A DNA stretch of 64,000 nt, taken from positions 7,257-71,256 of the forward strand of contig JAHFCF010000008.1 in the NCBI GenBank assembly GCA_023249645.1, given 5' to 3'. How positions within the stretch are numbered: the stretch's first letter is position 1; every line of letters begins with the position of its first letter. Origin of the DNA: Elusimicrobiota bacterium (lineage in GTDB: Bacteria > Elusimicrobiota > Elusimicrobia > UBA1565 > UBA9628). Positions 5,833-17,276 of this stretch are shown in pieces. Made by a program: the position numbers and the translations under genes. The notes under the pieces are model-generated. The model worked only from the letters and a program-made list of their open reading frames with translations. It did not search any database and was not told the DNA's origin.

Positions 5833-8274
5833 TTATTTTTCTCGGCGCTGCAGCGCCAAGGCGACCTTCTCGGCCGTGATGGGCATGGATTGGATGCGGA
5901 TGCCGACCGCGTCTTCGACCGCGTTGGCCACCATGGAGGCGGCCGGGATCATCGTATGCTCGCCCACGCCGCGCGCGCCGTAGGGCCCGTCCGGCTGGGC
6001 GGCCTCGACGAGGATGGGGACCACCTCTTCGGGAGCATCCAAGGCTGTGGGAATCTTGTAATCCGAGAAATTCGGATTCAACAGCCGGCCCTTGGCGTCA
6101 AAGCGCATGTCCTCGTAGAGAACGGTGGCCAAGCCCTGCAAAAGCCCTCCGGTCACCTGTCCGCGGATGAGCTCGGGGTTCAGCGCCTTGCCCACGTCCG
6201 CGGCCAAGACGGCCTTCAAGACCTTCATCTTGCCCGTCGCCTTGTCGACTTCGAGGATGATGCCGCCCGCGCCCGTGGTGTAGTGGACGTTGGGGTGTCC
6301 TCCCTGGCCCGTTTCCGGGTTGCTGATGGCCGAGGCGAACTCAGGCATGAACATTCCGTGGCCCATGATGGGTCCGCCCTTGTAGGTGTGGTCCGCGGCT
6401 TGGATGCCGTTGATGACGAAATCCTTCAGGGGGAGCTTCCAGCCCTTGCGCTTGCGGCAAAGGACGGATTCGTTCTCGAGATAAAGGTCCTCTGTGTTCA
6501 GGCACAGAGCGCGCGTGACCGTGTCGAAGATCTGATCGCGCGCGTTCAGCGCCGCTTTTTTGACCGCGTTGCCGCAGCCCCAGGTCACGTGCGAACCCAC
6601 GGTCTGCCACTCATAGGGGTTGCGGTCCGTGTCCGGGGTCTCGACGCGGATCTTGGACATGGGCACGGTCAGGATCTCCGAGACGATCTGGGCCATGACG
6701 GTCAAGAGCCCCTGGCCGAGCTCCATGCCGGAGACGAGGAGGTTCACGCTGGCGTCCTCGTTGAATTTCAGGAAGGCCGAGGAGGAGGCGTTGGGCGGCA
6801 TGGCCGGCGCCTTCCAGTAGAGCACGAGGGCTTTGCCGATGGACTTGGTCGGGTCCTTGGAGACTTCTTTCTTGCCCCAGCGGATCTCGGCGGCGGTCTT
6901 GTCGATGGCCTCGGCCAAAGCCGTGGGATTCATGTGCGCGCCGTAGGCCAGGACGTCGCCTTCTTTAATCGCGTTCTTCTTGCGCAAGGCGACCGGGTCC
7001 ATCTTGAGCTTGCGGGCCAATTGCGTCATGTGGGACTCGAGTCCGAAGCCGAACTCGGAGTAGCCGAAGCCGCGGTAGGGGCCGCCCGGCGGCAGGTTGG
7101 TGTAGACGCAGACCGAGTCGATCTTGACATGCTCGATCTTGTAGGGTCCGGTGGCGGAGAGCCCCGTCGCGTTGACCACATTAGCGCCATATTCGACGTA
7201 AGCGCCGGCGTCCCAGTAGATCGTGTGCTCCAGGGCCGTGATGGCGCCGTTCTTCTTGACGCCCATCTTGATCTTGGAGACGACGCCTTGGCGCTGATAG
7301 GTGTTGTAGAACTCCTGCGCCCGGTTCCAGAGGATCTTGACCGGGTGGCCCTGCACCGTCGTGGCCAGGGCCGCGCCCAAGATCTCCATGGAGACCCCGG
7401 CCTTGCCGCCGAAGCCGCCGCCGACATAAGGGGTGATGACGCGCACGTCCTTGTGGGAGATGCCCAAGGGCGCCAGGGCCTCGGCAAAGCCGTGGCGTTG
7501 GGTGAAGGGCGACTGGGAGGCGGTCCAGACCGTGAGCCGGCCCGAGGCGTCATAAAGCCCGATGGCGCCGTGCACCTCGATGGCGCAATGGGCGTAGCGA
7601 GGGACGGTGTAGGTGTCTTCCAAGACGAGGTCCGCGTCCTTGAAGCCTTGAGCCGCGTCGCCCTTGCGGATCTTGCGCCAGTGGGCGATGTTGGTGCCGG
7701 CCTTGGGAAAGAACCACGGCACGTGCTGGTAGCGGGCCAGGTCCGGGTGGATGAGGGTCGCGTTCTTTTCCAGGGCCTTCATCGGATCGACGAGAGCGGG
7801 GAGCTCCTCATAGTCGACTTTCACGAGGGCCGCGGCCTTGAGGGCGGCCTTGGGGTTCCAGGCGATGACGGCGGCGACCTGCTCGCCGACGAAGCGCGCG
7901 CGGTCCTGGGCGAATATGTAGCGGTCCTTCATGTAGAGGCCGAACTTGTAGGGGAAATCAGCGCCGGTGACGACCTTGACCACGCCCGGGACCTTGAGCG
8001 CGGCCGATGTGTCGATCTTCTTGATGAGGGCGTGCGCCAACGGGCTTTCCACGACAGCGGCGAAGAGGAGTTTGGGTCCGAATTCGATGTCATCGACGAA
8101 CTGGGCCGCGCCCATGACCTTCTCCAAACCGTCGATGCGCGGCACGGAGCGGCCGACGGTCTTCAGTTCTTCCTTCGGATGGGACGGCACGGATTTTTCG
8201 CCGATCTTGAGGCCGCGCTGAAGCCGCTTGTGTCCGTTGTGATGATGTTTAGCTAGGAGTTTTGTGTGCGCCAT
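5833..8274 (-). CDS. Xanthine dehydrogenase/aldehyde oxidoreductase molybdopterin-binding large subunit
   Basis: 813 aa. The MoCo-binding family shows 'GGGFGGK' and 'GQGLLTVMAQIVSEILTV', plus the conserved C-terminal dimerisation region. Confidence 0.9.
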   Translation of the reverse strand: MAHTKLLAKHHHNGHKRLQRGLKIGEKSVPSHPKEELKTVGRSVPRIDGLEKVMGAAQFVDDIEFGPKLLFAAVVESPLAHALIKKIDTSAALKVPGVVKVVTGADFPYKFGLYMKDRYIFAQDRARFVGEQVAAVIAWNPKAALKAAALVKVDYEELPALVDPMKALEKNATLIHPDLARYQHVPWFFPKAGTNIAHWRKIRKGDAAQGFKDADLVLEDTYTVPRYAHCAIEVHGAIGLYDASGRLTVWTASQSPFTQRHGFAEALAPLGISHKDVRVITPYVGGGFGGKAGVSMEILGAALATTVQGHPVKILWNRAQEFYNTYQRQGVVSKIKMGVKKNGAITALEHTIYWDAGAYVEYGANVVNATGLSATGPYKIEHVKIDSVCVYTNLPPGGPYRGFGYSEFGFGLESHMTQLARKLKMDPVALRKKNAIKEGDVLAYGAHMNPTALAEAIDKTAAEIRWGKKEVSKDPTKSIGKALVLYWKAPAMPPNASSSAFLKFNEDASVNLLVSGMELGQGLLTVMAQIVSEILTVPMSKIRVETPDTDRNPYEWQTVGSHVTWGCGNAVKKAALNARDQIFDTVTRALCLNTEDLYLENESVLCRKRKGWKLPLKDFVINGIQAADHTYKGGPIMGHGMFMPEFASAISNPETGQGGHPNVHYTTGAGGIILEVDKATGKMKVLKAVLAADVGKALNPELIRGQVTGGLLQGLATVLYEDMRFDAKGRLLNPNFSDYKIPTALDAPEEVVPILVEAAQPDGPYGARGVGEHTMIPAASMVANAVEDAVGIRIQSMPITAEKVALALQRREK

Positions 8275-8316: not shown

Positions 8317-11300
8317 TCAGTGATTGTCATCGAAGGGCAGCTTGTTCTGGCCGATCCGGAAAAGCACGAAGAAAGCGACATTGATCGCGGCGATCACGTA
8401 CCAGGTGAAGGGGAAAGCATGGGACTCTCCCCAGATCAGGGGGACCTGCTTGGCCGTGCCGTAGGTGGCCAGGGCGATGCTCGTGGCGATGTTGACGAAG
8501 GCTCCTCGGAATCCGGAGAAGTACTGCACCATGTTTGGCATCAATCTCTTCAGCGTGGCGGTGAAGTTCGCGCTGACCGTGTGCGTCGTGGGGTTGTGCA
8601 CCATGCCGAAGATGGCCAGGCTCAAGTAGAGCGACCACGGCGCCAAGTGGAAGAGGATCGGCAAAAAGCCCAGCACCAAGAGGGCCTTAGACTCAGCGCC
8701 CAGCCAATCGCGCTGTTTGATCTTCGGCGTCAGGTTGTGGATGAAGATGTAAAGCGGGATCATCACGGCGAAGACGACGGCCAGGCTGATCAAAGCGTGC
8801 GCCGACAGCAGGGCGGCCAACGACAGCTTGATCCCGGGTCCGAGGATCAGGCTTCTGGGCAGCAACAGGAGGCCCACCCAGGCGGCCATGCTCAAGGCTC
8901 CGAACCATTTCATGGCTTGTTTAAAGGTGGTCATGTGAGGGGAGATCATACCCGTGCCGGTCGGCATCTGTCCCATGTAAAAAGAGGCGAGGAGTTTTCC
9001 GAACAATTCACTCGACCCGGCGCCTTTGCCCGCCGTCTCAGTGGCCAGCACGCCCAGCACCGAGTTGCGCATGGGCAGTTCCATGAAGGCGCATATCATG
9101 ATGAAGGCCAGGCCCCATTTGAGCATGGGGTTCTTGGCGATGACCTGCGTGTAGGAGGGAGATTTCAGCAGCAGCCAGGCCGCCACGATCACGGAGGGGA
9201 GCGCGGACCTCGTCAGGAATGTGACGGGCCCAGTCCAAAGCCAAGAAACGGATAGCGGTGAAAAATGGAAGACCGGATAGGCGAGTGGAGGCAGGGGACA
9301 GAGGAAGAGGACCGCTAATCCGGCGAAGAGCAGCCCATAGCTTGCCCATCGCAGCCAGGTCCGGCGCGGGGTCGCCTTTAATATCGCATAGAGCTGCCGG
9401 CCCGCTTTATGGAGCTGTACCGCCGTGAACAGGACACTGTTCCAGAGGCGCGCGACGGGGGCGAGGATAGGCGGAGTCCTCGATGCGCGCACGTGTTTGA
9501 GGAATTCAGCGTTGACCCGAGCGTTGTCCACCTGCGGAGCGCCGACCTTGCGGCCTATGCCCGCCGGAATGGTCCGCCAGAGGACCAGCACCGGGAGCAT
9601 CTGCCCGGCGCCGGCGATGAGGAATGTCTTCATGTATCCCCAGCCGTCGACATGCTTTCCCAGCCATAGCCCCGACCCGACCGTGACGAGGATCGTGGCG
9701 ATCCGGATCATTGCTTCGTTGGAGCGCAGATCGTGCTCGTTGGTCGCCAGATCGGCCATCATGGCGAAGTCCAAAACGAACAGAAGCGCGAACTGTAGGG
9801 TGCTCAGCGCGGTCAGGACGAGCAGGGACGGGAAGCTCAGCATGGCGTACCCGATGGCCGCGGCGGTGATGAAGCTGATGACTGCCCGGAGGGCGAAATT
9901 AAAGAGGACGGCCGATTTTTTGTTTTGGATCCCGTCCATGATCTTGCCCACGGCCAGGGCCAGGCCGATGGCGATGATGCCTCCCAGCACGCCCAAGGTG
10001 AACATGCTCGCGGTGCCCACGGCCTTGATGATCATGGGGGTGTAGGCCAGGGTGATGAGCGAGCCGGCGACCATGGAGAAAAAGCGTGAGCCGAAGAGCC
10101 CCATGACCGCCGTTTTCTTCTGCTGGACGGACAAGTCGCTTTCATAAGTCAGCAGCGGGATGATCGAGGTCTTCTTCTGTTCGCTCGCCTTTATCTTTTC
10201 CCGGACAGAGACCAGATGTCCAGAGATGGACCGGACGCCCTGCAGGCCCATGTCGTCGAGCTTGTTGTCATACGCGACGATCTCCAGAGCGATGCGCGCT
10301 TCGGTCGTGCCGAGCGCGTCGAGACCGGCCATGGCCACCATGCGGTCGTTCTTGGGCTTGCCGCGGTCCGCGGCGATGGCTTGGAACTCCGCCACGAGGC
10401 CCGCGTCTGTGGCGCTTTTCTCAAGTTCAGCGCGGGCTTGAGGGGATCCGAAGGCGTCGAGGATCCTGACGGAGGCGACCCTGTCGGCCAGTACTTGCTG
10501 TCTGTCCCGGATGTTGGCGCCGAGCTGCGCGATCGCGGGAGAGACTTCCTGGACTGCCGGAGCCGCTTCGATGGCCCGGATGAAGGCCCGCAGCGCCCGC
10601 AGGGCCGTGACCCGGTCGGCGATCGGCTGGCGCGCGTTGCGGGCGACCTGGCCTAAGTCGGCGGAGAGGGGCGCGTCTTGAGCGAGGCGGACCAGGAACG
10701 ATTGGGCTTCTTCGCCGCGCGATTCGATGATCCGGATGGCCGCGATCCGATCCGCGATATTTTTTTGCTGGTTGCGCGCGATGCCGGCGAGGTCTTCAGT
10801 CGATAGATCGGAGAGCTTTGGCGCTTTGTTCGTGCCGAGCGCGTTGAGGCTGGCCATGGCCGCCATCCGGTCATTCTGGGGCCTGGCGCGATCCGCGGCA
10901 AGGACTTGAAGTGCCGCCACGAAGTCCGCATCACGAGCGCTTTTCTTGAGTTCTACGCGGGCTTGCGGGGATCCGAACGCTTGGAGGATCCTGACGGAGG
11001 AGACCCTATCGGCCGGGGGGTGTCGTTCGTCTCGGGTGTTGGCGCCGAGCTGCGAGATCGCCCAGGCGACTTCCTTGGCTGCGGGAGCTTCGTCCAGGGC
11101 CCGGGCGAGAGCCCTGAGGGCCCGCAGGGCCGCGATCCTGTCGGCGATCGGCAGGCGTGTGTCGCGGGCTGTATGGCCCAGGTCGACGGCCAAGGTCGCG
11201 TTTTGAGCCAGCCGGAGCAAAGACGGCCGGGCATCTTTTCCTTGCGACTCCACGAGCCGCAGGGCCTCGATCCGGTCTGTGATCTTTTTCTTCTGGTCAC

Positions 11301-11583
11301 GTGCGATGCCGGTCAGATCTTCCGTCGACAGAGGGGCTGCGCCGGTGATATCCGCGGCTTGCTGCGCAGGGTCTCCCTGTGGGAACAGAGGCGCGCCGGC
11401 ATCCCGCTTTCCTGGTTCAAGATCGAAATGCAGGAAGCCGAGATTCTTGGGACCCTGGGAGGCGTCCCCGGGAGGAGGAGTGCTTTTGGGAAGCGCTGCC
11501 CACGCTTGCTGGCCTGGGGAGAGGAGGATCAGGGTCGCGCAGAGCGCCCCTGCCAGAATGCGCTGCCAAAGCCGGATCCTCAC
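8317..11583 (-). CDS. Fusion protein: signal peptide + two tandem ~175-190-aa HEAT-like (PBS-lyase type) repeat units + C-terminal polytopic membrane domain (>=12 TM helices, MFS/nucleotide-transporter-like)
   Basis: N-terminal Sec signal (…PGQQAWA|A). Repeated 'ADRIAALRALRA / ADRVSSVRILQAFGSPQARVELKKSA / NDRMAAMASLNALG' motifs. The C-terminal about 600 aa is strongly hydrophobic with many helices. It is one uninterrupted frame. Confidence 0.6.
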   Translation of the reverse strand: MRIRLWQRILAGALCATLILLSPGQQAWAALPKSTPPPGDASQGPKNLGFLHFDLEPGKRDAGAPLFPQGDPAQQAADITGAAPLSTEDLTGIARDQKKKITDRIEALRLVESQGKDARPSLLRLAQNATLAVDLGHTARDTRLPIADRIAALRALRALARALDEAPAAKEVAWAISQLGANTRDERHPPADRVSSVRILQAFGSPQARVELKKSARDADFVAALQVLAADRARPQNDRMAAMASLNALGTNKAPKLSDLSTEDLAGIARNQQKNIADRIAAIRIIESRGEEAQSFLVRLAQDAPLSADLGQVARNARQPIADRVTALRALRAFIRAIEAAPAVQEVSPAIAQLGANIRDRQQVLADRVASVRILDAFGSPQARAELEKSATDAGLVAEFQAIAADRGKPKNDRMVAMAGLDALGTTEARIALEIVAYDNKLDDMGLQGVRSISGHLVSVREKIKASEQKKTSIIPLLTYESDLSVQQKKTAVMGLFGSRFFSMVAGSLITLAYTPMIIKAVGTASMFTLGVLGGIIAIGLALAVGKIMDGIQNKKSAVLFNFALRAVISFITAAAIGYAMLSFPSLLVLTALSTLQFALLFVLDFAMMADLATNEHDLRSNEAMIRIATILVTVGSGLWLGKHVDGWGYMKTFLIAGAGQMLPVLVLWRTIPAGIGRKVGAPQVDNARVNAEFLKHVRASRTPPILAPVARLWNSVLFTAVQLHKAGRQLYAILKATPRRTWLRWASYGLLFAGLAVLFLCPLPPLAYPVFHFSPLSVSWLWTGPVTFLTRSALPSVIVAAWLLLKSPSYTQVIAKNPMLKWGLAFIMICAFMELPMRNSVLGVLATETAGKGAGSSELFGKLLASFYMGQMPTGTGMISPHMTTFKQAMKWFGALSMAAWVGLLLLPRSLILGPGIKLSLAALLSAHALISLAVVFAVMIPLYIFIHNLTPKIKQRDWLGAESKALLVLGFLPILFHLAPWSLYLSLAIFGMVHNPTTHTVSANFTATLKRLMPNMVQYFSGFRGAFVNIATSIALATYGTAKQVPLIWGESHAFPFTWYVIAAINVAFFVLFRIGQNKLPFDDNH
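10190..11340 (-). repeat. Tandem direct DNA repeat (~527-bp period, 2 copies) inside the HEAT-repeat coding region
   Basis: Near-identical 45-50-mers occur at about 10442 and 10968 ('ggggatccgaaggcgtcgaggatcctgacggagg…'). The encoded protein units are about 60% identical. Confidence 0.6.
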
Positions 11584-11689
11584 GAATTCATTCTAACATG
11601 AGTGAAAAAATAACCTATAGGTCTTTGGGCTTAAAAAGGACCGGCAAAAGGCCCAGGCTGAAATAGGTCTATCGACCTATATTTTTTGG

Positions 11690-11742
11690 GGCCTTGCAAA
11701 AAAGACAGACATGTACTATAATATGTACATATTGGGGGATCC
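11690..11742 (+). promoter_or_regulatory. Putative promoter/operator of the phd-yoeB operon: TATAAT flanked by ATGTAC direct repeats, forming the perfect palindrome ATATGTACATAT
   Basis: Sequence 'acatgtacTATAATatgtacatattggggg' lies immediately 5' of the Phd ATG. Toxin-antitoxin operons are typically autoregulated at such palindromes. Confidence 0.45.
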
Positions 11743-11997
11743 ATGAGAAACATCACCGCCACGGGCGCACGCAATGATCTCTTCAACGTCATCAAGCATT
11801 CCATCAAGACGCATCAGCCTTGGCATATCACGTCCCGCGCCGGCGAGGCGGTCCTTTTGTCCTTGGAGGATTTCGAGGATCTCATGGAGACCCTGGAATT
11901 GCTCTCCACGCCGGGGGTTTTAGCGGGCGTCCGCAAGGCCAGAAAGGAGATCAGGGAAGGGAAGACCTACTCCTTCGCGCAAGTCTTCGGTCATTGA
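11743..11997 (+). CDS. Type II antitoxin, Phd/YefM family
   Basis: 84 aa. 'ARNDLFNVIKHS…HQPWHITSRAGEAVLLSLEDFEDLMETLELLS' matches the YefM fold. A YoeB toxin gene follows 3 bp later. Confidence 0.8.
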   Translation: MRNITATGARNDLFNVIKHSIKTHQPWHITSRAGEAVLLSLEDFEDLMETLELLSTPGVLAGVRKARKEIREGKTYSFAQVFGH

Positions 11998-12000
11998 ACC

Positions 12001-12255
12001 GTGCCTTACGAGATCCTCATCACGCGCCAGGCCCGCAAAGACGTCGAGATGCTCACTCCTAAGTTAAGGAACAAGTTGCGGGAACTTTTGATCCACGTCA
12101 TCTCTCAGGATCCCTATGAAGGCAAGAAGCTCTTGGGGGACCTGGCCGGGAGTTATTCTTACCGGTTAAGCTTGAAGGACCGCTTGATCTACAGCATCGA
12201 CGAGAGCAAGAAAACCGTTTACCTTGAGCGTGCCCGGACTCATTACGGGGACTAA
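12001..12255 (+). CDS. yoeB: Type II toxin, Txe/YoeB family mRNA interferase
   Basis: 84 aa, GTG start. C-terminal 'YSYRLSLKDRLIYSIDESKKTVYLERARTHY' is the YoeB signature. Confidence 0.8.
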   Translation: MPYEILITRQARKDVEMLTPKLRNKLRELLIHVISQDPYEGKKLLGDLAGSYSYRLSLKDRLIYSIDESKKTVYLERARTHYGD

Positions 12256-14189
12256 AACTTGAGCTTCTGGCACGCGGCGCGGAAGAGAAGGACGCCCATC
12301 GCAGCGAACGCCGCGACTGAGACCCAATCCGCATAGTTGCCGAACATCCCGATCAGGTTGAAGCGCTCGCCGAGATTGAGCACATTCGCGAAATAGCCTT
12401 CCTTGACGCCTGCCAGGATCGCGATGGCGATGCCGGCCAAGCATCCTCCGGCCACGAGCCCAGTCGAGTAGAGCATCCCCGAGCTGATCTCTCCCTCGGA
12501 CTCGGCTTTCTTCTGGCTGACCCAGGCGACCGCGGGATTGATCATTCCTCCCACGAAGATGGGGAAGGTGGTCGAGAGCGGCAGGTACACCCCGACGGCG
12601 ACCGGCAGCGAGCGCACGCCCAAGAGTTCCACGAAGACCGAGATGAGCATGCCGGTGAAGACCAGGCCCCAGGGAAGCTCCTGCGCCAGAAGTCCCTTGA
12701 TGAGGGTCGCCATCAAGGTCGCTTGGGGCGCGGCGAGTTTCTCCGAGCCGATGGGGCCGTAGGGCGAGGTGTGAAGAAGGAAGAGCGTCACGCCGATGAC
12801 GGCGGTTGAGGCCAAGACACCGATGATGAGGCCCAGCTGCTGCTTGTAGGGGGTCGCGCCCACGATATAGCCGGTCTTTAAGTCCTGCGAGGTCGCCCCC
12901 GCGTTGGCCGCCGCGATGCAGACGACCGCGCCCACGAAGAGCGCGATGGCCTGATACGAGGCGCCGGTCCAGCCCAGGGCCACGAAGATGAGGCAGGTGG
13001 CCATGATCGTGCCGATGGTCATCCCCGAGATGGGGTTGGAGGAGGAGCCGATGATTCCCACGATGCGGCTGGACACGGTCACGAAGAAGAAGCCGAAGAC
13101 GAGGATCAAGAACGACATGATCAGGCTCGCGGGGAACTTGCCCGGGAACTGGGGAAGCACGGACATGATCAGGGCCAGGCCGAGCGAGCCCCACAGGACG
13201 TAGGGCATAGGGATGTCCTGTTCCGTCCGCTTGAGGGCTCCGGACGCTCCCGCGTTTTTCAAGTCCTTGAGGCTCCCCTTAAACGAGGAGACGATGGTCG
13301 GGATGGTGTGGATCAGCGTGAAAAGGCCGCCGGCGGCCACGGCTCCCGCGCCGATGTAGCGCACATAGCCGCGGTAGATCTCCAGGGGCGACATCTGAGA
13401 GATGAGTAGGCCCTTCCAGCCGGGCAGCATCGTGATGGCCAGCTTGTCGCCGAAGAGGGTGATGAGCGGTATGAGGACCATCCAGGACAAGACCGAGCCG
13501 GCCACGATCTGGGCCGCGCCCTTGGGACCGATGATGTAGCCCACGCCCAGATACTCGGGCGTGATCTCCGAGCAGATCGTGGCGTTGGGGAGCTGGCAGG
13601 CGCGGCTGGTGATATAGGAGGGGGTGTCCTTCCATAGACCGAACACGCTCATGAGGAGCTTGTAGACGATGGAGGTGTAGAGGCCGGAGAAGACCACCTT
13701 GGCCAGGTTGCCGCCCTTCTCTCCGGCGACCAGCACTTCGGCGCAGGCCGTCCCCTCGGGGTAGGGAAGGACCCCGTGTTCCTTGACGATCAGGGCGCGG
13801 CGCAGCGGGATCATGAAGAGGATGCCGAGTATGCCGCCCACCAGGGCCAGGGTGAAGATCTGGAAATACTGGAAGTACTGTTCGCCGTTGGACAGGAAGA
13901 TCAGGGCGGGCACGGTGAAGACGACGCCCGCGGCGATGGACTCGCCGGCCGAGCCGATGGTCTGCACGATGTTGTTCTCAAGGATCGTGGACTTGCCGAC
14001 CTTCTTGAAGACCGCGATGGCCAGCACCGCGATGGGGATCGAGGCCGAGACGGTCAGGCCCGCGCGCAGGGCCAGGTACACGGTCGAGGCGCCGAAGATG
14101 ACGCCGAAGATCGCTCCCAGGACGACCGCCTTGAGCGAGAACTCGGCGATGGACGAGGCGTCATCGATGTAAGGCTTGAATTCGTGCAT
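12252..14189 (-). CDS. OPT-family oligopeptide transporter
   Basis: 645 aa polytopic protein with OPT superfamily conserved blocks ('NIVQTIGSAGES', 'DLKTGYIVGATP'). It is convergent with yoeB, with a 4-bp overlap. Confidence 0.8.
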   Translation of the reverse strand: MHEFKPYIDDASSIAEFSLKAVVLGAIFGVIFGASTVYLALRAGLTVSASIPIAVLAIAVFKKVGKSTILENNIVQTIGSAGESIAAGVVFTVPALIFLSNGEQYFQYFQIFTLALVGGILGILFMIPLRRALIVKEHGVLPYPEGTACAEVLVAGEKGGNLAKVVFSGLYTSIVYKLLMSVFGLWKDTPSYITSRACQLPNATICSEITPEYLGVGYIIGPKGAAQIVAGSVLSWMVLIPLITLFGDKLAITMLPGWKGLLISQMSPLEIYRGYVRYIGAGAVAAGGLFTLIHTIPTIVSSFKGSLKDLKNAGASGALKRTEQDIPMPYVLWGSLGLALIMSVLPQFPGKFPASLIMSFLILVFGFFFVTVSSRIVGIIGSSSNPISGMTIGTIMATCLIFVALGWTGASYQAIALFVGAVVCIAAANAGATSQDLKTGYIVGATPYKQQLGLIIGVLASTAVIGVTLFLLHTSPYGPIGSEKLAAPQATLMATLIKGLLAQELPWGLVFTGMLISVFVELLGVRSLPVAVGVYLPLSTTFPIFVGGMINPAVAWVSQKKAESEGEISSGMLYSTGLVAGGCLAGIAIAILAGVKEGYFANVLNLGERFNLIGMFGNYADWVSVAAFAAMGVLLFRAACQKLKF

Positions 14190-15185: not shown

Positions 15186-15917
15186 ATGCAGATGCAGGGA
15201 GATATGAACATGAACAAGAATATCTGGCCGCTTCTCGCCTTGGGCGTCGCGCTGGTTTCCGTCGGCGCGAACAGCGCCTGGGCCTTGGAGGATCTCCCTG
15301 CCGGAGGCCTCTCGCAGATCACTGGGAACGAAAAAACGTCCGAGGACGTTAAAGCGGCTGGCGACGTCAAGGCGTGGGATGTGGGTGCGGCTCTCAAAGC
15401 CAGGTTTTCCAATTTCAATGCGCGAGTTGTCCAGGCGAATCAGCAGGCTCGTCCGTGGTGTTCGTATGGACCATGCATGACGAATGGGATGGCTGCTCGC
15501 TCCGACACGCAGTCTGCTGCTCCGGACACAAAAAACTGTTGGAGGTATTGGGGAGCATGCCCGGCCGTGAATGAGCCGGCGGCAGTTCAAGCCGTCGTTC
15601 CTTTGACGCCGACGGACTTCGGGGCCGGCCATTATGCACCGTATGAAACGAGCGCCTCGCTGAAAAACAGCGCTCCTTCCGCCGGCGATCAGGCAGCCCA
15701 GACCGCCAACAACTGTTGGCGGCATTGGGGAGGGTGCGCGGCTCTGAATCTGTCGGTCGCTCCCAAAGCCGAGCTCGCGCCGAAAACAGACGCTCAGCCT
15801 GCATCAGAAACAGCCATCAGGCCTGCGCCGGAAGTCGCCCTTTGGTCTAACCGAAATTCTCATGCCATGAGGGGCTGCGCGGGTTCCGAGAGGGACTGCG
15901 ATCGGATCTGGCGGTAG
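15186..15917 (+). CDS. Secreted hypothetical protein with duplicated Cys/Trp motif N-C-W-R-[YH]-W-G-[AG]-C
   Basis: It has a signal peptide (…ANSAWA|LED). Motifs are 'KNCWRYWGACPAVNE' and 'NNCWRHWGGCAALNL', plus 'CSYGPCM'. No family was recognised. Confidence 0.5.
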   Translation: MQMQGDMNMNKNIWPLLALGVALVSVGANSAWALEDLPAGGLSQITGNEKTSEDVKAAGDVKAWDVGAALKARFSNFNARVVQANQQARPWCSYGPCMTNGMAARSDTQSAAPDTKNCWRYWGACPAVNEPAAVQAVVPLTPTDFGAGHYAPYETSASLKNSAPSAGDQAAQTANNCWRHWGGCAALNLSVAPKAELAPKTDAQPASETAIRPAPEVALWSNRNSHAMRGCAGSERDCDRIWR

Positions 15918-15920
15918 GGC

Positions 15921-17276
15921 GTGTCTTCGCCGCGCCCTCGATGGACGTTAAGCTTCCCCTGCGCGTGTCTGCTCCTGCCCTTCTCTGTTCCGTCCGCCTG
16001 GGCCCTGATCGGCAACGGGCACGACAGCTTCTTCCAGGAAGTTGAAGCGGACCTGAGGTCGCTGCGCGACGAAGCCGCCGGCCTTTCTCAAAGCGTCCAG
16101 GTCTTCCAGAGCGACATCGTCCCTTGGACCCTGCGGATCACCGCCGAGTTCGCCGATGCTCCACGCAACCTCCAGCTGCTGACGAGCGGCCAGGCAGCGG
16201 AGTGGCGTTCGGTCGGCAATCCCAACGATCCTGCTGCCTTCTGCAAGCAGGAGTTCTTGGACATCCTCTGGCACGGTTTTACCGATGCTTCCGGGCACGT
16301 TCACCGGAGCATCCATTACTATCTGGGCAAGGCCCGGTTCAGCGGTCTTTTGTCTTTGGTTCCGCTCAAGGGCACCTATTGGCCCGTGGCCGTCTGGAAG
16401 GTCCCGGATCCCTTCGACATCACCCGCGCCCAGGCTGAGGCGAAGGGTTTTGAGCAGGGGCTTCGTGAGCGTGAGGACTATTGGGCCCGGGAGAAAGCCG
16501 TCTACAATCGCTACCTGCAGGCGTTCGATCAGATGTTGTCCGTAGACCCTTCTTTGCCGTTGGTCACGGATGAATTCGGCCGTCAGCATCCGGCTTCGCT
16601 TCTCGTCTGGAGGGATCGAGAGAGGGGCCGGAGCGTCGAGGCCGAGGCTGCGGCCAAGGATTCTTTGGCGAGGCTCGATGCCGAGGCTGAAATCATCAAC
16701 CAAGAGATCTCGGCGGATGCTCCGAAGCTCCCTCTGATCTCGACATTGGCGCCGGGCCGATTAAAGGGCGTCCTGCCGATATATGCCGCTCAGTTGAGTC
16801 GACTCGAGACCCAGAGCAGGGGTTTGCTGCGAGCCGAGCTCAGGCCCCTGCTGGCTGCGTTCATTGCCGCTGACTACTATTTCATCCGATGGGCGCAAGC
16901 CGACGCTGATCTGGCGCAGATCGATCAAGCCATCCCTATCCTGGAGAGGGCTCGGGCTGGCTTCTTGGACAGCATGAAAATGTTCGATGAGGTGGCCTCG
17001 GACATCCAGGCGGATCGGATCTTTGTGGCCGCAGAGGAACACAGCGGAGAAGAGATACAGGCCATGTTCCATCGCAAGAAGGTCCTGATCCAAGACACCA
17101 TCCTGCCGCGCTTGAGGGAAGCCAAGGCTCTTCTGGGGAGCGAGACGAGCCCGGGCACGCTGCTCTGGCTCCTGCAGCAGCGCCTCTTGGCTGTGGATCC
17201 GAAAGGCGCCAGCGGGCCCTACTACGCCATTTTCTCGAATCAAGTGGCCTTGAGGGACCTGGTCGATCGGTTTTAG
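15921..17276 (+). CDS. Secreted hypothetical protein (GNPNDP-motif family); translationally coupled to the upstream Cys-motif protein
   Basis: 451 aa, GTG start 4 bp after the upstream stop. It has a signal peptide (…SAWA|LIG). It shares 'W[RS].GNPNDP[AS]A' and C-terminal 'LIQ…PRL' blocks with the 40670..41674 protein. Confidence 0.5.
   Translation: MSSPRPRWTLSFPCACLLLPFSVPSAWALIGNGHDSFFQEVEADLRSLRDEAAGLSQSVQVFQSDIVPWTLRITAEFADAPRNLQLLTSGQAAEWRSVGNPNDPAAFCKQEFLDILWHGFTDASGHVHRSIHYYLGKARFSGLLSLVPLKGTYWPVAVWKVPDPFDITRAQAEAKGFEQGLREREDYWAREKAVYNRYLQAFDQMLSVDPSLPLVTDEFGRQHPASLLVWRDRERGRSVEAEAAAKDSLARLDAEAEIINQEISADAPKLPLISTLAPGRLKGVLPIYAAQLSRLETQSRGLLRAELRPLLAAFIAADYYFIRWAQADADLAQIDQAIPILERARAGFLDSMKMFDEVASDIQADRIFVAAEEHSGEEIQAMFHRKKVLIQDTILPRLREAKALLGSETSPGTLLWLLQQRLLAVDPKGASGPYYAIFSNQVALRDLVDRF

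Follow-up and report, generated by a model that had tools for sequence, protein, structure and literature searches.

We analysed a stretch of 64,000 nucleotides from an Elusimicrobiota bacterium (GenBank assembly GCA_023249645.1, contig JAHFCF010000008.1, positions 7,257 to 71,256; hereafter the window) and focused on the gene at 8317-11583 on its minus strand. The gene encodes a protein of 1088 amino acids (aa) in which a signal-peptide-like N-terminus and an array of HEAT-like repeats precede a polytopic membrane half. An earlier note, made from the sequence alone, had described a secreted repeat domain fused to a transporter-like body. The best overall explanation, which we consider moderately probable, is an inner-membrane secondary transporter with the fold of the Major Facilitator Superfamily (MFS) that carries an amplified HEAT-like array on its cytoplasmic face. 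The open reading frame (ORF), the anatomy of the repeats and the age of their duplication were measured, and the MFS fold and, within the reach of our searches, the distribution of the family were established.

The gene, its membrane half and its family

The ORF at 8317-11583 is a genuine single intact gene. The ORF list gives it as one unbroken frame of 1088 aa with a GTG start and a TGA stop, the stop being included in the coordinates. The GTG is preceded, 10 nt upstream, by an in-frame TAG and is the only start codon yielding the N-terminus common to the relatives of the protein. The 3267-nt coding sequence (CDS) is 100% identical in two further assemblies, a MEGAHIT contig (ENA ERZ27279563, here L001) and a Logan assembly (SRR14366760, here L002), whose flanks match the window at 99.99-100%. 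The three assemblies come from different pipelines, and the NCBI record of the same protein lies on a 106.6-kb contig. Since the identical CDS recurs in independent assemblies, a frameshift, a sequencing error or a chimeric join of two genes is very unlikely, and the claim of one gene made in the earlier note stands. That note had named two separate genes, betrayed by an internal start and a sequencing error, as the finding that would overturn its reading. Such an artefact, in which a secreted repeat protein and a transporter were fused by an assembly or sequencing error, has no supporting point that we could find. Besides the three identical copies of the CDS, it is contradicted by the lack of any family-supported in-frame ATG, GTG or TTG start around aa 480 and by the N-terminal extension of 200-600 aa that is part of a single ORF in each of the nine full-length family members and in every paralogue. 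We regard it as exceedingly improbable.

Judging from its structural model, the membrane half is a very divergent MFS-fold transporter. According to hydropathy and an AlphaFold2 (AF2) model, the stretch from aa 486 to 1081 comprises 16 helices. This bears out the 'at least 12' transmembrane (TM) helices expected from the sequence, and we read the 16 as an MFS core plus extras. Helices 1-6 represent the N-domain of the core (aa 486-671; 9571..10128, minus strand as for all parts of the gene), with predicted local distance difference test (pLDDT) values of about 78-91, mostly 83-91, and with support from Foldseek and the family alignment. A long basic central loop, predicted to be cytoplasmic, follows at aa 672-739 (9367..9570); the segment between the flanking helix cores, aa 670-743, contains 13 lysine and arginine residues (K+R). 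Alignment, AF2 and Foldseek assign aa 740-1081 (8341..9366) to the MFS C-domain with the extra helices (helices 7-16). An additional TM helix hidden within aa 486-522 was considered and rejected, this segment being a single 37-residue helix.

The AF2 model was computed for aa 481-1088 with a family alignment of 12 sequences and reached a pLDDT of mostly 80-96 per 10-residue block, falling to 45-73 in two places, the central loop (about aa 680-790) and a loop at about aa 911-930. Single-sequence AF2 was uninformative (pLDDT 40). The best 50 Foldseek matches in the PDB were MFS proteins without exception (50/50; E 4e-6 to 6e-5, probability 1.00, target-normalised template-modelling score 0.42-0.67) and included SV2A, PepTSt, QacA, EfpA (score 0.67), MHAS2168/Rv1410, EmrB and VMAT. 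The 'transporter-like body' of the first description can thus be named as an MFS fold.

Between helices 2 and 3 lies a motif-A-like sequence, GKIMDGIQNKK in this protein and GKxGDxMPLKKY as the family consensus. Set against motif A, G-x3-D-(R/K)-x-G-R-(R/K), it agrees in the position of the G, the D and the final basic pair, but the middle is not conserved. Residues P975, G993, F1029, P1058 and W1061 of the C-domain are invariant in the family, the C-domain also carries the AFPFTWYV motif, and the family alignment contains conserved membrane-embedded motifs (E-x-P-x-R-N, E964 and H/N-P). With the MFS at large the protein shares the fold, the core of 6 + 6 helices, the long basic central loop, the motif-A-like loop 2-3 and the position of both core termini on the basic (inside) face. 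It differs by having 16 helices instead of 12 or 14 and by its N-terminal extension of 485 aa.

At the sequence level, the link of the window protein to the Pfam family MFS_1 (PF07690) is transitive only and runs through distant relatives. All ten distant relatives match MFS_1 at E<=0.01 and six of them pass the gathering score; P0014, P0015, P0016, P0020, P0021 and P0022 score 38-56 bits. Among the close relatives, 2/12 match at E<=0.1, and P0003 has a precomputed MFS_1 match. The best NCBIfam match in seven of the eight distant relatives tested was TIGR00900, the family of DHA3 H+ antiporters (TC 2.A.1.21), with paralogue scores of 19-54 bits against a cut-off of 319.6. Neither the window protein nor its close relatives match TIGR00900, and DHA3 is therefore named here as the nearest subfamily with a name and not as a membership. 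The window protein has no relevant match in NCBIfam and stays below the sequence thresholds of every named MFS subfamily. Sequence searches of the PDB yielded no meaningful match, whether the query was the protein, the family profile or the profile of the repeat unit.

The family is small. An exhaustive HMMER search across 1.84 billion cluster representatives gave no more than 22 matches. Ten of these had E<1e-30 (496-1052 aa); the strong matches cover mainly the membrane half, and ten weaker ones are mostly about 1000-1280 aa long. Word-indexed searches of 5.8 billion clusters, queried with the whole protein, its membrane half and the profile of the family, recovered the protein's own fragment and one distant MFS protein among the matches listed. 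Scans of genome contigs and metagenome contigs with the protein itself found no relatives, and tblastn found no second family member in the window. All four loci from GTDB species genomes belong to Elusimicrobia/Elusimicrobiota metagenome-assembled genomes (MAGs), and NCBI lists the relatives under the name 'hypothetical protein [Elusimicrobia bacterium]'. Within the range of our searches, this is a small, new and unannotated MFS clade seen only in Elusimicrobia MAGs, a distribution that by itself makes an Elusimicrobiota genome the probable source of the window. The membrane domain of the window protein is 33-41% identical to that of every other member, and the protein hence represents a lineage of its own.

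The repeat array and its counterpart in paralogues

The N-terminal part of the protein is a repeat array that arose by tandem duplication. Repeat unit A (aa 85-259; 10807..11331) is followed by its tandem copy, unit B (aa 260-434; 10282..10806), and by aa 435-485 (10129..10281), which comprise the tail of the eighth repeat and a K-rich linker into the first TM helix (TM1). A direct-repeat search found a 300-nt pair 525 bp apart, and the tandem period is accordingly 525 bp or 175 codons. Tandem Repeats Finder reported no array, its longest period (500) being below 525. At the protein level, aa 85-254 and aa 260-429 align without gaps at 64% identity (BLASTP E 3e-73). At the DNA level, the units are 76% identical over 522 nt (blastn) and 74.7% identical over the full 525 nt. 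The tandem direct repeat proposed in the earlier note is therefore real; the units span 10282-11331, close to the proposed 10190-11340, and only the period of 527 bp has to be corrected.

The proposed recent origin of the duplication did not hold up. Over 175 aligned codons the two units show a synonymous divergence (dS) of 0.53 and a nonsynonymous divergence (dN) of 0.24, with a dN/dS of 0.46 and no indels. A divergence of 25% of the nucleotides and a dS of 0.53 mean that the duplication is old. These values point to retention of both units in frame under moderate purifying constraint ever since. The only other copies of the gene, in L001 and L002, are identical and have the same number of repeats.

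Each unit contains four HEAT_PBS-like sub-repeats, giving eight sub-repeats of about 44 aa (44-46). They are anchored by a D-R pair at aa 103, 148, 192, 238, 278, 323, 367 and 413, which is invariant in 8/8 repeats, and their consensus is DLGxxARDxxxPIADRxAAxRxLxAxG...A..L...A.DA. BLASTP also aligned the units out of register (E 7e-6 and 2e-4), so the similarity of the sub-repeats is not due to chance. Together with the ungapped alignment of the units, these matches uphold the earlier view of the N-terminal part as a repeat array, which is predicted to be helical.

The HEAT/PBS-lyase assignment fared less uniformly. A single 46-aa copy of the consensus covered positions 2-27 of the 27 in the Pfam profile HEAT_PBS (PF03130) with 20.7 bits (E 5.6e-4; cut-off 20.9) and matched HEAT_2 (PF13646) at E 0.0032; the top two Pfam matches are both HEAT families. 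Three shuffled and one reversed version of the consensus gave no HEAT match. A consensus concatenated four times matched HEAT_PBS at E 8e-14; we discarded this result, as shuffled fourfold controls scored equally strongly (E 1e-10) against unrelated families. The assignment thus draws on the single consensus copy with its HEAT-negative controls and finds no counterpart in the native sequence. 'HEAT/PBS-lyase-like alpha-helical repeat' appears to be a reasonable, if weakly supported, label for the array.

A set of longer paralogues (about 1000-1340 aa: P0013-P0020, P0023, L010 8300-12325 and 15543-19049, L007 11282-14959) helps to place the array. They share the signal-like motif with the window protein and belong to the same MFS lineage (27-30% identity over helices 1-6). 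Whereas the window protein has eight repeat motifs, the paralogues have one, perhaps two (e.g. SRLAAVRVLEKV...RAALEEVA). A hidden Markov model of the eight repeats detected one site in 8/11 paralogues (seven distinct ones, as L010_1341 equals P0014), located at aa 133-312; in every case this site precedes the MFS domain. The presence of one motif in the paralogues indicates that the array of the window protein is an amplified element of the wider family and not a foreign domain. The paralogues further carry a weak HAD-IIB-like domain after the repeat and before the MFS part, which the window protein lacks.

Two or three paralogues of the clade lie in tandem in two Elusimicrobia MAG loci (L007 8001-14959 and L010 8300-19049), where longer paralogues often adjoin family members. 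In the longer of these (1168-1341 aa), the repeat motif and a weak HAD-IIB-like segment (DxDxT; E 0.005-0.02) precede the MFS domain, and this fusion of a phosphatase-like segment with a transporter appears to be unannotated.

The array might also be a by-product without a function of its own, derived from a linker motif whose expansion was tolerated, in a protein of which only the transporter domain matters. Consistent with this, no part of the family varies more than the N-terminal region: in the nine full-length proteins that are close relatives, the signal-like motif is followed by 200-480 aa of mostly Ala/Ser/Pro-rich low complexity without repeats. When JGI metagenomes were scanned with an alignment of the two units, nothing related to the 175-aa unit turned up, and among the 1.84 billion representatives the repeat region has no clear match beyond the protein's own fragment, although a few matches reach into aa 329-480; neither the cluster nor the JGI metagenome searches provided homologues that would deepen the alignment of the array. 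However, a dN/dS of 0.46 at a dS of 0.53 and the absence of indels over 175 codons speak for some constraint on both copies, the D-R pair is kept in all eight repeats, and the motif is retained at one position in the paralogues. We therefore consider a functionless array rather improbable.

The N-terminus and the placement of the array

The first 29 residues (aa 1-29; 11497..11583) resemble a signal peptide. They read MRIRLWQR-ILAGALCATLILL-SPGQQAWA-A, where the last hyphen marks the putative cleavage site. By inspection, all features of a Sec signal peptide for signal peptidase I are present: a basic n-region, a hydrophobic h-region within the range of 7-15 residues (13 in this protein) and small residues at -3/-1 in the form of an AXA site. 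Lipoprotein and Tat signals were rejected, since a lipobox and an RR motif, respectively, are absent. The layout is family-wide and consists, in all full-length members, of basic residues, 12-15 (about 13) hydrophobic residues, SPG or APG, five to six further residues and AxA. It was seen in P0002-P0009, P0013-P0023 and L008 9299-11647 and thus includes both subfamilies, paralogues among them. The pattern is kept among proteins with just 27-40% identity, a conservation that exceeds that of an ordinary signal peptide. No other instance of the motif exists in the window. Literature searches found no described MFS protein with a conserved signal-peptide-like N-terminus. To our knowledge, no MFS protein has a long N-terminal extension that opens with such a segment. 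Gene calls can hide it: in the P0004 cluster (NCBI PIP84338.1, PJA17012.1 and PJB25735.1), the NCBI call has 628 aa where other sources give 763 aa. The shorter call thus lacks the signal-like start and a portion of the N-terminal region, and its product is called 'hypothetical protein'.

Between this segment and the array lies a Pro/Gly-rich charged linker (aa 30-84; 11332..11496), which is mostly non-helical in the AF2 model (pLDDT 27-43). Nearly all relatives have, at aa 40-110, an uncharged and moderately hydrophobic stretch of 40-50 residues rich in Ala, Pro, Ser and Leu, which is TM-like in P0021 (2.42) and P0017 (2.11). The window protein lacks this stretch. In the relatives, the Pro-rich stretch and the first segment could make an N-terminal membrane hairpin that keeps the next domain cytoplasmic.

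On which side of the membrane the array lies was approached by counting K+R in the segments between the 16 helix cores of the AF2 model. In the window protein, the side on which TM1 starts has 31 K+R and the other side 8; in nine longer homologues, the split is 25-42 versus 2-9. The number of helices is even, and the C-terminal tails are K-rich. In the paralogues, the alignments to MFS_1 and TIGR00900 set in at positions 3-9 of the profiles, within the helix matching aa 486-522, and this register identifies helix 486-522 as the canonical TM1 of the MFS. Taken together, the charge bias and the canonical TM1 predict that the end of the N-terminal region which joins the membrane is cytoplasmic. 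No hydrophobic segment able to cross the membrane was found in aa 21-486, where the best 17-residue window scores 0.96 and contains four charges. A downstream topology compatible with Sec export is therefore not apparent, as TM1 is predicted to start in the cytoplasm and aa 22-485 offer no hydrophobic segment. HAD-IIB-like domains with a DxDxT motif are more usual in cytoplasmic enzymes, and the occurrence of such a domain at the same position in the paralogues favours a cytoplasmic placement of the array. The motif-A-like, if incompletely conserved, sequence of loop 2-3 also speaks for this placement, and the NTT-HEAT fusions discussed below, with their HEAT domain on a cytoplasmic C-terminus, are a precedent. 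On balance we think it quite probable that the array is cytoplasmic, and the earlier proposal that it sits outside the membrane is not supported.

This placement conflicts with the N-terminus. As read, an N-terminus of the signal type and the topology of the transporter exclude each other. Taken at face value, a cytoplasmic array means that the signal-like segment cannot be an ordinary export signal.

Several observations weigh against a cytoplasmic HEAT-like array on an MFS transporter. The window protein has no Pfam match at E<=1, including MFS_1 (gathering score 33.4 bits), and its native sequence has no HEAT match in Pfam even at E<=10, the HEAT label being based on a derived consensus that scores just below threshold. 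AF2 predicts about two helices per 44-aa repeat, but with a pLDDT of mostly <50, which leaves a solenoid fold putative. The N-terminus resembles a classical cleavable Sec signal peptide and is conserved in both subfamilies, which argues for export, and the uncharged Ala/Pro/Ser/Leu-rich stretch of the relatives is a possible return crossing or periplasmic linker. The neighbouring genes (a Phd/ParE toxin-antitoxin pair, a xanthine-dehydrogenase-type molybdenum (Mo) subunit, an aconitase and an OPT transporter) give no clue to a substrate, and the context conserved around the relatives, with an AddB-like nuclease, a paralogous MFS gene and FlgD_ig/PorV, is absent here.

The export-directed points combine into an alternative in which the N-terminus is a working Sec signal peptide or anchor and the HEAT-like array is periplasmic, sitting on the transporter for example for substrate capture or contact with the outer membrane. 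The basic n-region, the 13-residue h-region, the SPG and the AWA-A site are textbook signal features, the pattern is kept in all full-length relatives and paralogues, and the low-complexity Ala/Pro/Ser region of the relatives resembles a linker that spans the envelope. Such a placement would require a non-canonical MFS topology, in which the chain crosses the membrane once more than is recognised or TM1 fails to span it. It is opposed by the positive-inside count in the window protein and its homologues, which puts the start of TM1 in the cytoplasm, by the identity of TM1 as the first MFS helix according to both profile register and fold, and by the want of a second hydrophobic segment; an inverted domain would put more than 30 K+R in the periplasm. 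We consider a periplasmic array unlikely. Still more doubtful is the wider claim that the signal peptide is functional and that the clade comprises the first MFS proteins with a truly exported N-terminal domain, HEAT-like here and HAD-like in the paralogues. If this were true, the proteins would have a non-canonical topology, for example an odd number of crossings or a non-spanning TM1, and a periplasmic binding or enzymatic module would be coupled directly to the MFS core.

Neighbouring genes, related fusions and a possible mechanism

A type II toxin-antitoxin pair lies upstream of and divergent from the transporter gene. It consists of a Phd/YefM antitoxin and a ParE/YoeB-like toxin (11743-11997 and 12001-12255, plus strand) and sits between the transporter gene and a gene for an OPT oligopeptide transporter (12252-14189, minus strand). 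Three of the four ATAGGTC heptamers of the window cluster in a 64-bp stretch inside the intergenic region 11600-11742 (11617-11623, 11663-11669 and 11674-11680), and two of these sites make a perfect inverted repeat, ATAGGTCTATCGACCTAT. A promoter-like sequence on the plus strand (TTGCAA-17-TATAAT, 11694-11722) adjoins them. The heptamer cluster is probably an operator of the toxin-antitoxin module.

On the other side, a gene for a xanthine-dehydrogenase-type molybdopterin subunit (5833-8274, minus strand) begins 42 bp downstream of the transporter stop and is followed by genes for an aconitase, an HI0933-like flavoprotein and an amidohydrolase. The 42-bp gap contains no convincing terminator, so that the transporter gene may be co-transcribed with that of the molybdopterin subunit. 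Operon logic linking the transporter to the downstream Mo-hydroxylase and aconitase was rejected, as this context is not common to the relatives. Further away, two adjacent ORFs (15186-15917, plus strand, 243 aa; 15921-17276, plus strand, 451 aa) have no Pfam match; the corresponding place in L001 and L002 also has gene calls (235 and 451 aa), likewise without a Pfam match.

The closest known architecture is that of the NTT-HEAT fusions, in which a TLC-type nucleotide transporter carries C-terminal HEAT/PBS-lyase repeats; they are widespread and annotated as PBS lyases (PMC5381601). The function of their repeat domain is unknown, and a role as a protein-interaction or regulatory module was proposed (PMC5381601). 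Both systems combine a polytopic transporter and HEAT/PBS-lyase-type repeats in one polypeptide, and by the topology rule of the MFS the repeats would be at a cytoplasmic terminus in both. Unlike the NTT-HEAT proteins, the window protein has its repeats at the N-terminus and no TLC/NTT match in Pfam, its repeats are 44-46 aa long and approximate the HEAT_PBS threshold as a consensus only, and its family is confined to Elusimicrobia MAGs whereas NTT-HEAT proteins are broadly distributed. Literature searches on MFS proteins with a signal peptide, 13 TM helices or a HEAT fusion found no precedent besides NTT-HEAT. The earlier impression that no characterised family has this architecture is consequently not supported: the body belongs by its fold to the MFS, the best-known superfamily of transporters, and NTT-HEAT fusions have been described (PMC5381601), but their domain order is opposite and their transporter family a different one.

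A mechanism can be outlined for an MFS-fold transporter with a cytoplasmic array; in it, the substrate and the coupling ion are inferred, as are the solenoid fold of the array, its location in the cytoplasm and its role as a scaffold. Members of the clade follow a common plan of a conserved signal-like N-terminus, a variable non-membrane region of 200-600 aa and a membrane domain of 16 helices. In the lineage of the window protein, the motif that is single in the paralogues would have been amplified to four, after which the 525-bp block was duplicated in tandem long ago (1 -> 4 -> 8). The membrane domain may move a small solute by the rocker-switch or alternating-access mode of the MFS. Coupling would probably be to protons, as the remote affinity to DHA3 and the motifs E-x-P-x-R-N, E964 and H/N-P suggest. 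The array may form an alpha-solenoid that is tethered to TM1 at the cytoplasmic face. There it might act as a scaffold on which a partner protein or a ligand docks or exerts regulation, much like the role suggested for the HEAT parts of NTT-HEAT fusions.

With this analysis, a 1088-aa protein without a sequence match in Pfam, NCBIfam or the PDB is placed as an MFS-fold transporter of an Elusimicrobia-restricted clade. Current understanding would remain unchanged unless the N-terminal domain is truly exported. Two explanations are conceivable: a different role of the signal-like segment, for instance as anchor, hairpin or targeting signal, or an exception to the topology rule of the MFS. The protein would be a second, independent fusion of HEAT/PBS-lyase-type repeats with an MFS-type transporter beside NTT-HEAT, which suggests that such fusions may be a recurring regulatory or scaffolding solution.

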